A DNA stretch of 64,000 nt from Heterodontus francisci (taxonomy: Eukaryota), in NCBI RefSeq assembly GCF_036365525.1, contig NC_090401.1, positions 42,740,683-42,804,682 on the forward strand, read 5' to 3'. Of this stretch, positions 7,421-62,527 are shown one piece after another. Made by a program: the position numbers and the translations under genes. The notes beneath the pieces are model-generated. The model made no database searches, had not been told where the DNA came from, and was given only the letters and a program-made list of their open reading frames with translations. Each line of letters opens with the position of its first letter. Position 1 is the stretch's first letter.

Positions 7421-7521
7421 TGTGCGCGGCGAGCGGCCTAGTGGAGCCGGGACCGGGGACCGGCCTGAGCGAGTGGACTGTGCACTCAGCGGCTAGATGG
7501 AGGCGTTGGTAGAAGTGGCAG
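7410..7521 (+). other. WDTC1: Putative non-coding exon 1 of WDTC1 (start approximate)
   Basis: GC-rich segment after the promoter motifs, ending at donor GGCAG|GTAGGA (GT at 7522). A likely exon-2 acceptor TTTTTAG lies at 11741. Confidence 0.55.
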
Positions 7522-7691
7522 GTAGGAATGGCGCCTCCGATCCGCAGCTCACTATTATCTCGCGACTTGTGGCAGGGCCTGAGGCCTTGGCCTTGGCCTG
7601 ACATCGCAGTAGGGCCTTCGGACATTGCGAGCGGCGACAGCCCGGGCCCAACAGCGGTAGTAGGAATGCCAAGAGCTGAGTATCGTCTCAG

Positions 7692-9740
7692 CCCCCACCA
7701 TCTCCCCCCCCACACCCGTCATCTCTTCTTCCCCCCCCCCCCCCCACACCCGTCATCTCTTCCCCCCCCCCCACACCCGTCATCTCTTCCCCCCCCCCCA
7801 CACCCGTCATCTCTTCTTCCCCCCCCCCCACACCCGTCATCTCTTCTTCCCCCCCCCCCCCACACCCGTCATCTCTTCTTCCCCCCCCCCCCACACCCGT
7901 CATCTCTTCTTCCCCCCCCCCCCACACCCGTCATCTCTTCTTCCCCCCCCCCACACCCGTCATCTCTTCTTCCCCCCCCCCACACCCGTCATCTCTTCTC
8001 CCCCCCCCACACCCGTCATCTCTTCTCTTCTCCCCCCCCCCACACCGTCATCTCTTCTCCCCCCCCCACACCGTCATCTCTTCTCCCCCCCCCCCCACAC
8101 CCGTCATCTCTTCTTCCCCCCCCCCCACACCCGTCATCTCTTCTTCCCCCCCCCCCACACCCGTCATCTCTTCTTCCCCCCCCCCACACCGTCATCTCTT
8201 CTCCCCCCCCACACCCGTCATCTCTTCCCCCCCCCCACACCCGTCATCTCTTCTTCCCCCCCCCCCACACCCGTCATCTCTTCTCCCCCCCCCACACCCG
8301 TCATCTCTTCTCCCCCCCCCACACCCGTCATCTCTTCTCCCCCCCCCACACCCGTCATCTCTTCTCCCCCCCCCACACCCGTCATCTCTTCTCCCCCCCC
8401 CACACCCGTCATCTCTTCTCCCCCCCCCCCACACCCGTCATCTCTTCTCCCCCCCCACACCCGTCATCTCTTCTCCCCCCCCACACCCGTCATCTCTTCT
8501 CCCCCCCCACACCCGTCATCGTCATCTCTTCTTCCCCCCCCCACACCCGTCATCTCTTCTCCCCCCCCACACCCGTCATCTCTTCTCCCCCCCCCCCCAC
8601 ACCCGTCATCTCTTCTCCCCCCCCACACCCGTCATCTCTTCTCCCCCCCCACACCCGTCATCTCTTCTCCCCCCCCCCCCCCACCCGCCGTCGTCTCTTC
8701 TCCCACCCCCCCCCCACCCGTCGTCTCTTCTCCCACCCCCCCCCACCCGTCGTCTCTTCTCCCACCCCCCCCCACCCGTCGTCTCTTCCTCCTCCTCCTC
8801 CCCTCCCACCCCCCCCCACCCGTCGTCTCTTCCTCCTCCTCCTCCCCTCTCCCCCCCCACCCGTCGTCTCTTCCTCCTCCTCCCCCTCTCCCNNNNNNNN
8901 NNNNNNNNNNNNNNNNNNNNNNNNNNNNNNNNNNNNNNNNNNNNNNNNNNNNNNNNNNNNNNNNNNNNNNNNNNNNNNNNNNNNNNNNNNNNNNNNNNNN
9001 NNNNNNNNNNNNNNNNNNNNNNNNNNNNNNNNNNNNNNNNNNNNNNNNNNNNNNNNNNNNNNNNNNNNNNNNNNNNNNNNNNNNNNNNNNNNNNNNNNNN
9101 NNNNNNNNNNNNNNNNNNNNNNNNNNNNNNNNNNNNNNNNNNNNNNNNNNNNNNNNNNNNNNNNNNNNNNNNNNNNNNNNNNNNNNNNNNNNNNNNNNNN
9201 NNNNNNNNNNNNNNNNNNNNNNNNNNNNNNNNNNNNNNNNNNNNNNNNNNNNNNNNNNNNNNNNNNNNNNNNNNNNNNNNNNNNNNNNNNNNNNNNNNNN
9301 NNNNNNNNNNNNNNNNNNNNNNNNNNNNNNNNNNNNNNNNNNNNNNNNNNNNNNNNNNNNNNNNNNNNNNNNNNNNNNNNNNNNNNNNNNNNNNNNNNNN
9401 NNNNNNNNNNNNNNNNNNNNNNNNNNNNNNNNNNNNNNNNNNNNNNNNNNNNNNNNNNNNNNNNNNNNNNNNNNNNNNNNNNNNCCTCCTCCTCCCCCCC
9501 CACCCGTCGTCTCTTCCTCCTCCTCCTCCCCCCCTCCCCCCCTCCACCCGTCGTCTCTTCCTCCTCCTCCTCCTCCCCCCTCCACCCGTCGTCTCTTCCT
9601 CCTCCTCCCTCCACCCGTCGTCTCTTCCTCCTCCTCCTCCTCCTCCTCCCCCCCCACCCGTCGTCGCTTCCTCCTCCTCCTCCTCCCCCCCCACCCGTCG
9701 TCGCTTCCTCCTCCTCCCCCCCACCACCCGTCGTCTCTTC
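7692..9740. repeat. C-rich minisatellite (CACACCCGTCATCTCTT(CTT)Cn) spanning a gap
   Basis: Dozens of about 25-31-bp units with variable poly-C length. N-gap at 8893-9484. Confidence 0.95.
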
Positions 9741-11322
9741 ACTAGGGAAGAGGTACTGACCAAACTGATGGAGCTGTGGGCTGAAAATCCCCCAGGTCCT
9801 GATGGGCTTCATCGTAGGTTCTTAAAAGAGGTGGCTAATGAGGTGGTTGGTGTTAATTTTTCAAAATTCGCTAGGTTCTGGCAAGGTTCCATCAGACTGG
9901 AAAGTAGCAAATATAACCCCTCTATTCAAGAATTGGGGAAGGCAGAAAACGGGTAACTATAGGCCAGTTAGCTTGATGTCTGTCATGGGGAAGATGTTGG
10001 AATCAATCACTAAGGAGGCTGTAGCTGGGCACTGAGGAAAAACTCAAGGTAATCGGGAATAGTCAGCATGGCTTTGTGAAAGGGAGATCATGTTTAACTA
10101 ATCCATTAGCGCTCTTTGAAGGAATAACATGTGCCGTGGATAAAGGGAGCCTGTTGACTTACTGTACTTGGATTTCCAGAAGGCGTTTGACAAGGTGTCA
10201 CATAAAAGGTTATTGTACAAAGTAGGAGCTCATGGTGTAGTGGGTAACATATTAGCATGGATAGAAGATTGGTTGACTGACAGAAAACAGAGAGTATGCA
10301 TAAATGGGTCCTTTTCTGATTGGCAGGATGTGACGAGTGGAGTCCCACAGGGGTTTGTGCTGGGGCTTCAACCTTTTACAATTTATATCAATGACTTAGA
10401 TGAGGGGAGCAATGGCATGGTAGCTAAATTTACAGATGACACAAACATAGGTAGAAAATATATTGTGAAGAGGGCATAAGGAGCTTGCAGACCAATTTAG
10501 ATAGATTGAGTGGGCAAAAATCTGGCACGTGGAGTATAACGTGGGAAAAATGTGAAGTTGTTCACTTTGGCAGGAAGAATAAAAAAGTAGAGCATTTCTT
10601 AAACGGAGAACAACTGCAGAACTCAGAGTTGCAGAGGGATCCAGATGTTCTGTTGCTGGAGTCACAAAGTTAGTATGCAGGTACAGCAGGTAATAGAGAA
10701 GGCGAATGGAATGCGATCCTTTATTACGAGAGGAATTGAAAATAAAAGTAAGGCTGTTATGCTTCAATTATACAGGGCATTGGTGAGACCACATCTCGAG
10801 TACTGCGTGTAGTTTTGGTCTCCTTATTTAAGGAAGGATGTAAATGCGCTGGAGGCAGTTCAGAGGAGGTTTACTAGATTAATACCTGGAATGAGCAGGT
10901 TTTCTTATGAGGAAAGGTTGGACAGACTGGGTTTTTTTTCACTGGAGTTTAGAAGAGTGAGGGGAGACTTGATTGAAGTTTATAAGATCCTGAACAGCCT
11001 TGACAAGGTGGATGTGGAAAGGATGGTTCCTCTTGTGGGTGATGCCAGAACTAGGGGGCACTGTTTTAAAATTAGGGGTCGAATATTTAGGAGAAATAAG
11101 GAAAAACATTTTCTCTGAGTGTTGTGCGACTTTGGAACTCTCTCCTTCAGAAAGTGGTGGTGTCAGGGTCATTAATAGATAGATTCATGTGAGGCAAGGA
11201 AATCAAAGGTTATCTGGTAGATGGGAATGTGGAATTTGAGGCACAAACAGGTCAACCATGATACTGAATGGCAGAGCAGGCTAGAGGGGCCAAATGGCCT
11301 ACTTCTCCCAATTTGTATGTTT
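9741..11322 (+). mobile_element. CR1 LINE, 5'-truncated, degraded
   Basis: ORF fragments PGPDGLH, NYRPVSL, DFQKAFDKV, GVPQG and KFTDDT, followed by a CR1 tail. Confidence 0.92.
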
Positions 11323-56599: not shown

Positions 56600-56794
56600 A
56601 GTGAAGATCAAAATGAGCGAGTGATTGAAGACATGGAGGGGGCTTCACAGGCGAACCAGCGGCGAATGAATGCAGACCCCCTTGAGGTTATGCTCTTGAA
56701 TATGGGATACAGGATCACTGGACTGACCAACAGTGGAATGGCCTCAGATGATGAGGAAAACTCTGAAGGCCAGGTGCAGTGCCGGCCGAGCTAA
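56600..56794 (+). CDS. WDTC1: WDTC1 coding exon 15 (last), ending GQVQCRPS*
   Basis: SEDQNERVIEDMEGASQANQRRMNADPLEVMLLNMGYRITG...QVQCRPS-TAA. All coding exons sum to 2019 nt. Confidence 0.97.
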   Translation, partial: SEDQNERVIEDMEGASQANQRRMNADPLEVMLLNMGYRITGLTNSGMASDDEENSEGQVQCRPS

Positions 56795-59700
56795 ACAACA
56801 ACTCCAACAACAGCGTACTTGGGACAGACCAGGGAAAAACTCTCAGTTCAGAGTGTCTGTGGCTGAAACACTGCACTGTCCTCAGCTATGCACCAAAAGC
56901 TTTGTTCAGGAAGCAATGACAGGGTTTGCATTATCTCCAACATCTATCAGACTCACTTATGGATGAGTTCTATATCAGTCTGCAGAAGTCTGAGAGTGAT
57001 GGTGCTACCCTCTCAAGAACAGCTAACTGGGCCAAACCTGGCCTGAGACGCATACAGGAGACTTCAAATTGTTTCCGGTGATTGAAAAAGACTCATTTGA
57101 TAAGCAGATCTTTTTGTAAATTGTCTAGATGCTGCTTTCAGTTTGTATAAATGCTTCCTCCTCTATCACCTTCAGTCCCTTTGTCGTAATGGATTCTGCG
57201 CAGTCCATTAGCAACAAGCAGCCGTTAATATTGAGGTAAACTGCACTCCTTTCATCGCCCTGGAACCACTAGTTCAAGTCCCAGGGCTTCCTTATGTAGC
57301 TTTCATTGCAGGACATAGAGGGTCCTGACTGGTGGTCACAGCTGGTAGTCATGTCCCTTGGTCACGGCCATGTTTGTGACTCCTTTGCCTGCCTCTTCGC
57401 CAGTTTACAATGCGCATGCAGGATGTGTAGCTAAACATGGCCTGATATAGGGATCTCTGCATCATTTGTGGGGACTTAGACCATGGACACATAGGATGAA
57501 ATCACAGTGTACATGCAGAGAGGAGACTGTTTCATGGCGAAGTATGGGAGTTGGGTCAGGAAAACCCCCGCACTCAGTGTTGCGAACAACCTGGTGATGG
57601 GGCGGGGGGGGGTTGTGCCTACACACCTCTGTCTCCTGCACTCTATAGCTCTGTTCTTTGTCCAGCTTTCTTCCCCCAGTCTCGGCTGCCTGTCTACTTA
57701 CTGTCTTTTTCACTGCTTAACATTCATCTGTTCAAGCACTGATTCTGTGAGCAGTGTCTGCAGCCTGTTCACAGCTTCCAGAGTTTGCAAAGTGTGATAC
57801 TGCCCTCTCCTGGAATGCTTCTCACAGGGTGACTTTTTACTCAGGTGTCCCTAAAACTCGGCATTGTAAAACCAAGCCCCAGTCCCGTCAGGAGCTCTGA
57901 ATCAAATGTTCCGTTTGCAGAGCATATTTAAGAATGTGGGGGGGGTGGACTTATTAAGTATATTTTGGTTTCTTTTTCTGGCTGCTGCTTTTTGATGACT
58001 TCTGTTGCGATGTGTGAGCTAGTTTAAGTCTTGAGCTGTCAGCTTTGAGAAGCAGCAGTGATGCTCTTGGTAAAGTTGGGGAGGAAATTATCAGTTTAGT
58101 TCTCATTCTGATTCCTAATTTGCTGTTAAGTTTATCAAATTTTATTGAGAGTTTGGCTGGAAGCTGTAGCATGAGGTAGAGAAGAATGTTTCACTTCTGG
58201 GCAGGTTGGGGGAAACACTGAGTGAGGGGGTGGGGAGAATTTCTGCCTGACAAGGGAGGGGAGCAAGCTGACAATGTGGTAGGAAGTAATGAAAACAGCA
58301 ACAACTAACTGCAGCCATTCTGTTACAACACTGACCCAATAAATGGTAGCAAATGGAATGGAGTGCACACCCTGACTGGTAGAGTAGGTTAGCAAGCTAT
58401 CCTTCTACCTCTGAAACCTGTGCGAGATCTAACGCAGAGAGGAAATCCTACCTGCCAGCATGAAGCTCCTGTTTGAGTTTCAGGAGGTTCCACTTAAATT
58501 GACTGAAAATGTGGAAACTGATGTGTTCACAAAGATGGGAGGTGAAATATCTTTCTTACATGGCAGAGGGTGATGTTTTGTAGTAGTATGCAGTGTATAA
58601 AGAGTTACTGTTGTGAGGAGTTATGGTTTTGTTTATAACAAGGTGGGAGTTAAGGTCCTATGTACACAGTTCCAATTGATTTTGCCAGTGTGTGCACAAT
58701 ATAGAGATCACTTTAATCACTAATAGTGACTCCTTCACTTCCTGGACAAACAAATTCATCACATGCGGAGACTTCTCTGCTGCAAGTTCCATTTGCGTTT
58801 TAAGGCACATTCAATTGGGTTACACTGAATTGAAAGCAAGTTTGTGAAATGGTGATCACTGATTCGCTTCACTGCAGCTTCTCCTGGAAGGATTTGTTCA
58901 TCAATTTATTTTGAAAGCCACTAATTTGCTGTTTTCATGAGAAAACAGATGAAATCATTGGCTGAAATCTGTACAGCTCAGTTAGAAATTCCATTGCCTG
59001 TGCAATAACAGCAGAATTTGACTGGTTCGGTTACTGATCATGTGTGACTGCCTTAGCAGTTACTATGCTGGGTATGCTGTAGCCAGTTGATCACCTAAAC
59101 TAGTTACTGATCAGTTGCTGAGACGGTGAGCTGCTGCATCATTGCAGGCAGGTGTTTCCTGAGATCCTCCCTAGGGGTTGCAGGGTTAGAATTCAACCAG
59201 AAGGAGGCCTATAGTTCAGTAAAGTGTCTAATCCCAGTCCGGAGAGGCTGTGGTGTTAGAGCAGGCTTGATTTGAGATGTAGCCAGAACTTATTAGCTAA
59301 TCGCACCATCAGCCTTTATGTCTGTAATTGCATTGTTAAGTAATACCTTAAAGTGTAAATTAGGTTATGGTGGGATTGTTAATCAGGATAAATTATTCTG
59401 TTTAAAATCCTGCCCGATCCCTTCACTGGGATCGTTGCACCTTTGCGGTTGTTCAACAGCCTTGATCTGAAGCTTTAACCCCCTGTGTGGTATCAGTCAG
59501 TGCATTAAATGGTAAAGTATGTCAGTGGTGGGGTAGGTAGTTGGAAGTTCAATGTGCTGGATATTCCTCTGCAACAATTGCAGTCTCCCCCCCCAATCTG
59601 AGAGCTGCAGTGCCAATTGTGTGCATAAACCTCACTCAGTTTGTTGCTCCTGTCCTTGTCTGTGATTTGATGAGGAATTGCCCGTGGGAAGCTGCTAACT

Positions 59701-59861
59701 GTACAAATTAAATTGTTAATCCACGGTTGTGATGAGTTTAAAGCCAGCATTAAATGGCGGGTTTAGCAGAATGCTGTTTGGTTTGGTTGCTAATAATTCA
59801 TACTTGTATAGGGGCTGCTGCTTTCAACAAGCTTGTAGTTACTCCCAATGTACATTGGTGC

Positions 59862-61420: not shown

Positions 61421-61700
61421 AGCAAATGGGTGAGAAGATCTGGGCATGCTAGTGTACGTGCAGTGGGTGAGTGTAGGTGTGTTTGTGAGCTAAACCCTGT
61501 GATATTAAATTTCCTACCTGAGAGTGTGCCCGTTACTCCAAAGGCTGGTATAATTCACGTAACACGGTCTACACTGTCCCATCAAACAGGGACAGGTACA
61601 GCACGGGTTGGGTACGGAGTAAAGCTCCTTCTACACTGCCCCATCAAACACTCCCAGGGTTAGATATGGAGTAAAGCACTCAGTGTGAATTAAATAGATA

Positions 61701-61706
61701 TTTATT
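61701..61706 (-). terminator. TRNP1: Likely polyadenylation signal of TRNP1
   Basis: TTTATT on + (AATAAA on -), about 90 nt past the stop codon. Confidence 0.65.
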
Positions 61707-61793
61707 TTAATTTACATTCTGGTTAAGGGAAGAGTCAGAGACCCGGGAAATTGCACAACAGACCTGCGGCTCCCGGCCACTCGGCCCGTCTCC

Positions 61794-62222
61794 TCATTTA
61801 CTGGCCCAGGGGACACAGCCGCGCAGCCCCAAGGCAGCGGCCACCATCAGCGGCGCCCGGTGTCCCCTGAATTTGAGGTGGGTTTTGATGCTCTGGCTCC
61901 GGGCGCTAAGTCCAATCTCTCCCTGCTGAGCACCGCTCCGGATCCGGTTGACCAGCTCCCCGTGTTCCACTGCCTCCTGCTCGGCCCGGACCAGGATATC
62001 GTGCAGCTGCTGCAGGCCGATCTCCAGCTCCCGGACCCGGCGCTGCCGCCGCTCCATCTCCAGCAGTCTCCGCCGGGCTTCCGCAAACTCCAGGCTGCTG
62101 CTCGGCGTTAAGGCCCGGGACACCGGCTCGCTCCCCGGGCCCCGTTGCTCCTTCTCCTCGCCCGCGGCTGGCGGGGCAGTCGCAGCTCCTTTTCCCAACT
62201 GTTTGTCCCGCAGCTTCCCCAT
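61794..62222 (-). CDS. TRNP1: TMF1-regulated nuclear protein 1 homologue, 142 aa, single coding exon
   Basis: LEFAEARRRLLEMERRQRRVRELEIGLQQLHDILVRAE and AALGLRGCVPW match human TRNP1 LELAEARRRLLEVEGRRRLVSELESRVLQLHRVFLAAE and SALGLGGCVPW. Strong Kozak GCGATGG and an in-frame upstream stop. TRNP1 and WDTC1 are also linked on human 1p36.11. Confidence 0.9.
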   Translation of the reverse strand: MGKLRDKQLGKGAATAPPAAGEEKEQRGPGSEPVSRALTPSSSLEFAEARRRLLEMERRQRRVRELEIGLQQLHDILVRAEQEAVEHGELVNRIRSGAQQGEIGLSARSQSIKTHLKFRGHRAPLMVAAALGLRGCVPWASK

Positions 62223-62254
62223 CGCAATCCCCGAAGCTCAGCTCCGTCTGCGGA

Positions 62255-62527
62255 GATTCTGCAGTGTGGGCGGGACGGGGAATGGGCGGGATTCTGCAGT
62301 GTGGGCGGGACGGGGAATGGGCGGGATCTGCAGTGTGGGCGGGACGGGGAATGGGCGGGATTCTGCAGTGTGGGCGGGACGGGGAATGGGCGGGATTCTG
62401 CAGTGTGGGCGGGACGGGGAATGGGCGGGATTCTGCAGTGTGGGCGGGACGGGGAATGGGCGGGATTCTGCAGTGTGGGCGGGAAGGGGAATGGGCGGGA
62501 TTCTGCAGTGTGGGCGGGACGGGGATT
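62255..62527. repeat. 35-bp GC-rich minisatellite, about 8 copies
   Basis: Unit GATTCTGCAGTGTGGGCGGGACGGGGAATGGGCGG, starting at 62255, 62290 and onward. Confidence 0.95.

Follow-up and report, generated by a model that had tools for sequence, protein, structure and literature searches.

The locus considered here raises the question of whether TRNP1, studied for its control of neural stem cells and of the folding of the cortex, originated from a syntaxin, and which vertebrate syntaxin is closest to it. The gene lies in a window of 64,000 nucleotides of the shark Heterodontus francisci, the whole stretch of DNA that was analysed. TRNP1 was reportedly first described, by Volpe in 2006, as a conserved mammalian gene. 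A coiled-coil SNARE domain was predicted at residues 110-171 of dog TRNP1, with no syntaxin named (PMC10647097); for this species, the remark in the first-pass annotation that a SNARE-like central helix had been noted before is borne out. Neither 'SNARE' nor 'syntaxin' occurs in the text of PMC7429739 or PMC10032658. No derivation of TRNP1 from the STX11/19/21 clade was found in the open-access literature searched.

The shark TRNP1 gene

Positions 61794-62222 of the window, read on the minus strand, are the shark orthologue of TRNP1, as given by homology and gene order (Table 1). A word search returned 20 proteins out of 161 candidates, namely shark and ray TMF-regulated nuclear protein 1-like and teleost si:ch211-160f23.7; two of the 20 bear an automatic UniRef name that starts with 't-SNARE coiled-coil homology'. 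The top match of the shark protein in the ESM Atlas is the TRNP1 cluster (0.90), and the homology within the TRNP1 family spans the helix and the C-x-P-W tail. Translation of 61866-62078 yields exactly the 71 residues that had been quoted for this locus, residues 49-119 of the 142-residue reading frame. The fold model consists of one long helix (residues 40-130) behind a disordered N-terminus. A Foldseek search of the PDB with this model gave 0 matches, a single helix being uninformative.

Table 1. Features of the TRNP1 locus, in positions of the window.
Feature	Position	Strand	Description
TRNP1 orthologue (P0003)	61794..62222	(-)	142-aa ORF, one exon; relatives named TMF-regulated nuclear protein 1(-like); GC3 0.80
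TRNP1 residues 1-39, N-terminal	62106..62222	(-)	disorder predicted, pLDDT < 50 for residues 1-34; without Habc domain
Qa-SNARE-derived helix, residues 49-119	61866..62078	(-)	layers -7 to +8 are residues 63-115; from alignment, profile searches and fold model
His87 replacing the zero-layer Gln	61962..61964	(-)	His in 16/16 non-tetrapod TRNP1; SNAP-25 Gln50 in register (complex model)
Hydrophobic C-terminal tail, residues 124-139	61806..61853	(-)	phi-G-phi-x-x-C motif; Cys136, Pro138 and Trp139 invariant; common to the syntaxin-21-like family
Unspliced contig spanning the entire ORF	61689..62250	(-), inferred from the ORF, contigs being strandless	RNA-like runs
AATAAA, likely polyadenylation signal	61701..61706	(-)	12 bases from the contig end
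G-rich tandem repeat of 35 bp, 7.9 copies	62250..62525	(.)	TRF; starts 28 bases before the TRNP1 start codon

The expectation of a single coding exon, as in STX11 and STX19, holds: the gene has one exon, and no intron interrupts the motif. Mammalian TRNP1 is likewise described with a single coding exon (PMC10032658). The ORF is crossed by a single jointless contig in four of four runs, which come from three studies and were judged RNA-like, none being recorded as RNA; this behaviour shows in a GT..AG joint in a neighbouring gene and in empty intronic bins. The 5' ends of the TRNP1 contigs halt at the tandem repeat. A search of the shark's own genome gave one TRNP1 gene and one fragment, and a divergent copy could escape this search. 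A second TRNP paralogue, considered for the proteins P0046-P0054, was rejected; the three that were looked up are frog TRNP1.

A syntaxin motif in register

SNARE motifs of the STX1-4 type were rebuilt from exons of the same shark, that of syntaxin-1A by joining two exons in silico. Residues 49-119 align to this syntaxin-1A motif with 0 gaps, 15 identities in 71 positions and a BLOSUM62 sum of 64, which confirms the earlier count of about 15 in 71. The match is specific to its register: the best of 28 shifted registers reaches -19, and a sum of 64 was attained by 0 of 20,000 plain shuffles and by 0 of 20,000 shuffles that preserve the heptad classes (mean -30, sd 16, for the latter). The shark helix shows the heptad motif with its 16 layers in the syntaxin register. 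Layers -7 to -3, +1, +2, +5 and +7 are hydrophobic, while -2 (Ala), 0 (His), +3 (Ala), +4 (Gly), +6 (Arg) and +8 (His) are atypical. Alignment and profile match agree that H87 takes the place of the zero-layer Gln of syntaxins, as had been proposed. Phe at layer -3 is a mark of Qa-SNAREs. This layer holds Leu77 in the shark protein, and Phe in 8 of 16 non-tetrapod and 14 of 16 tetrapod TRNP1 sequences; these belong to an anchored set with 16 sequences per group (out of 32 non-tetrapod and 22 tetrapod ones), from which near-duplicates, fragments and chimeric models were excluded.

Syntaxins rank first when the single shark sequence is searched against the PDB (E 0.003). A profile of 20 shark and teleost TRNP1 sequences improves the best E-value to 6.6e-6, with syntaxins in the first 21 of 36 rows. 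We regard the fish sequences as the bridge to the syntaxins, because a tetrapod-only profile, burdened with long low-complexity N-termini, reaches just 0.028. The shark stretch had been thought nearer to syntaxin than mammalian TRNP1 is. This is true of the groups, both in these E-values and in the mean score against shark STX1-4 (71 for non-tetrapod, 48 for tetrapod TRNP1), but not of single proteins, since hamster TRNP1 has 16 of 71 identities to shark syntaxin-1A and a score of 61.

Among 1.84 billion representative proteins, the TRNP1 profile found 37 matches at E <= 0.001. They comprise 31 members of the TRNP1 family (one of them chimeric), six syntaxins (E 1e-4 to 7e-4) and 0 unrelated coiled coils. 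Five of the six syntaxins carry Pfam SNARE and the sixth is named syntaxin; none is of the STX11/19/21 type. SNAP-25, used as a control SNARE coiled coil, gave 0.8% against TRNP1 in hhalign. A check against the Pfam SNARE and Syntaxin families, which had been recommended, was negative: no match was obtained in shark TRNP1, its 20-protein family set or any TRNP1 among the 31 representative matches. Searches by blastp and tblastn gave no Habc remnant in TRNP1 N-termini or in the 214 kb flanking the gene. Shark TRNP1 departs from a canonical syntaxin in three defining respects, namely zero-layer Gln, Habc and Pfam. Profile searches, the register test, hhalign and the absence of Habc together argue for an Habc-less syntaxin descendant, as was first suggested, and we are highly confident that TRNP1 descends from a Qa syntaxin of the secretory kind. 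A resemblance between the shark N-terminus and the syntaxin N-peptide, seen by eye, was unsupported.

TRNP1 from sharks to mammals

Named TRNP1 matches come from chimaera, sharks, rays, bichir, teleosts, coelacanth, axolotl, frogs, squamates, a parrot and mammals, with no cyclostome among them; the gene dates to the jawed-vertebrate ancestor at least. The zero-layer His is not confined to sharks and occurs also in chimaera, rays, bichir, teleosts and coelacanth. The 16 tetrapods of the anchored set carry Arg (10), Gln (5) or Ser (1) instead. In 15 of 16 non-tetrapod sequences the protein ends 3-5 residues past C-x-P-W, whereas all 16 tetrapod sequences have a C-terminal extension of 26-111 residues, mostly Arg-rich. 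In the frog-type sequences (P0046, P0047, P0048, P0050 and P0054) the zero layer is Gln, the N-terminus is long and rich in Ser and Pro, and the tail motif is shortened.

Shark and mammalian TRNP1 have the helix, the C-x-P-W tail and the neighbouring genes in common. They differ in that the shark protein has His and not Arg at the zero layer, and is without the Arg-rich C-terminal region, the N-terminal 16-residue motif of the mammalian protein and the MPG[CL] start of some amniote sequences. Mouse Trnp1 resides in the nucleus and is reported to interact with proteins of the nucleolus, of splicing and of chromatin; its retention there is described as depending on the C-terminal part, and its phase separation and function on the first 16 residues (PMC7429739). 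Because the Arg-rich extension and the MPG[CL] N-terminus are missing, shark TRNP1 is without both of the parts tied to these properties in mouse.

A possible role in SNARE assembly

A complex was modelled from three chains, shark TRNP1, SNAP-25 from a metagenome contig (not from shark) and a partial shark VAMP exon. In the model, the shark helix occupies the place of syntaxin next to SNAP-25 and VAMP, with a score of 0.72 compared to 0.00 for the best of three controls. At least 96% of contacts agree between runs, and the pLDDT of the partners is at least 77. H87 lies opposite SNAP-25 Gln50, and confident contacts end at residue 109. In calibration, 51 of 78 solved pairs reached the score mark, as did 2 of 108 mismatched ones; the present three-chain complex differs in kind from these pairs. 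Because close relatives of true partners also pass, a passing score may be taken for likeness to, and compatibility with, a SNARE bundle, not for binding, and it may stem from likeness to solved complexes. The earlier idea that shark TRNP1 might enter or inhibit SNARE complexes gains from the fit to the syntaxin slot in this one predicted model, and is held back by the same possible explanation of the score.

The anchor region of the shark protein has no full transmembrane segment, but a short tail with one invariant Cys. A tentative mechanism can be outlined as follows. Fish TRNP1 would be cytosolic, or held at the membrane via its hydrophobic tail and Cys136, and would pair with SNAP-25/23 and a VAMP through the well-kept N-terminal layers; we give these two predicted steps, taken jointly, somewhat less than an even chance. 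Zippering would be poor at the membrane-proximal end (layers +3, +4, +6 and +8). Since these layers are degenerate, fish TRNP1 would compete with true syntaxins or tune them, and would not drive fusion. The role in the nucleus that is known for the mouse protein would be a later gain, made with the tetrapod Arg-rich extension and the change from His to Arg. That the fish protein acts as a non-fusogenic Qa mimic competing in SNARE assembly is our preferred, though tentative, reading. Amisyn and tomosyn are soluble R-SNARE mimics. They too compete for complex assembly with an anchor-less SNARE motif; they mimic VAMP, however, whereas TRNP1 would mimic the Qa helix.

The main rival keeps the same origin but has the fish protein already removed from fusion. 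Like mammalian TRNP1, it would serve as an adaptor that works through its coiled coil, either in the nucleus or at the golgin TMF1; we think this has a substantial, though minor, share of the probability. Layers -2, 0, +4, +6 and +8 are unlike those of all syntaxins, and the fish-specific surface residues are invariant. The mouse Trnp1 helix is reported to bind other coiled-coil proteins, with Trnp1 found as a TMF1 interactor (PMC7429739), and TMF1 is described as a Golgi vesicle tether (PMC9969905). What speaks against such an adaptor is that the fish protein has neither the C-terminal extension that retains the mouse protein in the nucleus nor the N-terminal stretch for phase separation, and that the SNARE-complex model passed.

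The nearest syntaxin

Three single-ORF syntaxins occur in this genome, STX11, STX19 and P0023. The family of P0023, here called STX21-like, comprises 82 proteins that range from sharks to reptiles and are annotated as syntaxin-3-like or 1A-like; its named matches include no mammal, bird or derived teleost. Syntaxins 11, 19 and 21 are given as vertebrate paralogues in PMC6143360, and we infer that the P0023 family is likely the syntaxin 21 of that paper. The shark sequence P0023 (L009:1471-2346, at C15:83.796 Mb) is one residue short beside the zero layer when compared to its relatives, which is either a true deletion or an assembly error.

An intron lies at the zero layer in STX1-4, and none is present there in TRNP1, STX11, STX19 and STX21-like. 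TRNP1 is likely a truncated duplicate from this intronless STX11/19/21 group. Within it, hhalign favours STX21-like (96.8%, score 73.8), the match extending nearly ungapped into the tail over 100 columns, compared to 93.6% and 54.2 for STX11 and 81.2% and 42.9 for STX19. The tail motif phi-G-phi-x-x-C, at +44/+45 from the zero layer, is present in 14 of 16 non-tetrapod and 6 of 16 tetrapod TRNP1 sequences, and in 74 of 79 STX21-like proteins (3 of the 82 being excluded as partial or odd). Transmembrane (TM) syntaxins do not have it (0 of 5), nor, among the best 120 of 873 matches, do STX11 (0 of 107) and STX19 (0 of 11, the named STX19 in this sample being exclusively from cartilaginous fishes). 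STX21-like and TRNP1 further agree in the Qa motif being in register and free of introns, and in lying on paralogous chromosomes. In contrast to TRNP1, STX21-like retains Habc (Pfam Syntaxin), a zero-layer Gln (76 of 79) and 3-6 cysteines in the tail. This tail is also more hydrophobic and could form a marginal anchor in the membrane (KD17 2.2, compared to 1.34 in shark TRNP1 and a mean of 3.0 in TM syntaxins).

STX11 and STX19 resemble TRNP1 as single-ORF genes without a hydrophobic anchor, with tail Cys and on paralogous chromosomes. They differ by a full Habc, a zero-layer Gln and a short tail with 5-7 Cys, which these two syntaxins have in common. The tails of STX11 and STX19 are S-acylated.

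HMMs built from core and tail prefer STX21-like for 14 of 16 non-tetrapod and all 16 tetrapod TRNP1 sequences. Core-only HMMs do not: TM syntaxins are best for 14 of 16 non-tetrapod sequences. Core states shared exclusively with TRNP1 number two each for TM syntaxins and STX11, and one for STX21-like. All six trees that include STX21-like (67, 52 and 41 rows; three of them built without the tail) join it to TRNP1, at 98/83, 99/97, 100/98, 99/94, 98/96 and 100/97 (bootstrap/SH-aLRT). Long branches meeting were flagged in four of the six, and in one tree the long outgroup landed inside the ingroup. AU tests of alternative sisters gave p-values of 0.047 and 0.072 for the core, and 0.058, 0.154 and 0.119 for core and tail. 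The phylogeny that had been called for thus places TRNP1 with a syntaxin clade, that of STX21-like, but does not clearly reject the alternatives (p 0.047-0.154).

Chromosomal neighbourhoods

The chromosomal neighbours of TRNP1 on C31 encode, according to Pfam, DUF4656, a nuclear-receptor ligand-binding domain, ATP_bind_1, WD40 repeats and BAF250_C; NHE1-like exons were recognised by eye and missed by a search with PF16644. We take these neighbours to be KDF1, NR0B2, GPN2, WDTC1, ARID1A and SLC9A1, the names being given partly by eye. The exons of the WD40 gene read as WDTC1 lie at 12898-59860 (+) of the window, with a spliced last exon at 56600-59860. In C31:42.54-43.00 Mb, the SLC9A1-WDTC1 block is apparently rearranged with respect to the mammalian orientation, with WDTC1 tail-to-tail with TRNP1. 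The gene list around cattle TRNP1 matches the shark neighbours and includes TENT5B beside TRNP1 (PMC12075139). TENT5 was not found in 464 kb of C31.

TRNP1 itself is located at C31:42.80 Mb, and an SH3BGR-family gene at 44.09 Mb of the same chromosome. STX21-like at C15:83.80 Mb is flanked by TENT5 (83.12 Mb) and an SH3BGR-family gene (84.65 Mb). P0023 has TENT5 on one side and a BRWD-like gene on the other, the interval to TENT5 being about 580 kb, with other genes possible within it. SH3BGR-family genes occur on C3, C10, C15 and C31, and TENT5 on C3, C10 and C15. STX19 is found at C10:60.72 Mb with ARL13B-like exons adjoining, and STX11 at C13:1.01 Mb, with a utrophin-like gene 0.8 Mb away. 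The ARID1 pair is split between C31 and C13, which supports the suggested paralogy of the TRNP1 and STX11 neighbourhoods.

Taking these data together, we think it probable that TRNP1 is sister to the STX21-like gene and arose in the genome duplications of early vertebrates. The first-pass annotation had named an STX11-like gene as the ohnologue of TRNP1. The affinity to the clade stands, while STX21-like fits better than STX11 as the direct sister in profile score, tail, trees and neighbourhood. A direct STX11 ohnologue, whose syntaxin-21 likeness would be a retained ancestral tail plus long-branch attraction, is improbable. It would suit the ARID1 pair, and 1p36 and 6q are the usual pair of the second genome duplication; moreover, TRNP1 falls among STX11 once STX21-like is omitted, and the mean identity of tetrapod TRNP1 is highest to STX11 (18.3 of 72). 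Against it stand the hhalign score of 54 compared to 74, the missing tail motif in STX11 (best 120 of 873 matches), the separate Cys-rich tail of STX11 and STX19, and AU p-values of 0.047 (core) and 0.058 (core and tail), a marginal rejection.

Another possibility, which we hold to be quite improbable, is that TRNP1 arose separately as an intronless, retro-type copy of a TM syntaxin resembling STX1-4, with loss of Habc and a shorter anchor. STX1-type proteins have the same G-E following the zero layer and the same R preceding layer +2, the core-only HMMs prefer TM syntaxins for most non-tetrapod sequences, all six syntaxin matches in the 1.84 billion proteins fall outside STX11/19/21, and the AU p-values are 0.072 and 0.119. 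Likeness to STX1 is to be expected under any origin, however, because slow-evolving STX1 presumably keeps ancestral states. In addition, the tail motif is missing from the five TM syntaxins compared, the three core trees separate them from TRNP1 at 100/98, and the location on a fourth paralogon chromosome would be coincidental. Convergence of a generic coiled coil, which could appeal to an identity of about 21%, the silence of Pfam SNARE and the modest single-sequence E-value of 0.003, is very improbable and largely refuted by the top rank of syntaxins in the PDB profile search, by the one scoring register, by the 37 matches without an unrelated coiled coil and by the nearly ungapped run into the tail.

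Implications for TRNP1 biology

On balance, the evidence leans towards shark TRNP1 being a syntaxin-derived TRNP1, probably nearest to syntaxin 21, with the fish form a non-fusogenic syntaxin mimic. A more far-reaching version, rather unlikely in its entirety, would make TRNP1 the missing fourth member beside STX11, STX19 and STX21 from the vertebrate duplications, a Qa decoy with a zero-layer His that tunes exocytosis in fishes and was co-opted to the nucleus in tetrapods by the Arg-rich tail and the zero-layer Arg.

A syntaxin origin offers a structural framework for TRNP1, with named layers to mutate. If true, a vesicle-fusion gene was turned into a driver of cortical folding, and a stepwise route from fusion protein to nuclear condensate protein is suggested. 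As the teleost His form is annotated as si:ch211-160f23.7, the ancestral function is testable in zebrafish. Attention is also drawn to a poorly annotated third STX11-like syntaxin that extends from sharks to reptiles among the named matches.

Some further observations concern the genome. The TRNP1 fragment is 112 bp of coding sequence, 96% identical, at L002:1507-1618 (C11, about 112.863 Mb). It lies about 700 bases from a Mab-21/MB21D2-like exon, named by eye, and resembles a recent stray copy. The window also contains long low-complexity tandem arrays with masked stretches at 7500-9950 and 33900-38700, and many LINE-like reverse-transcriptase fragments throughout.
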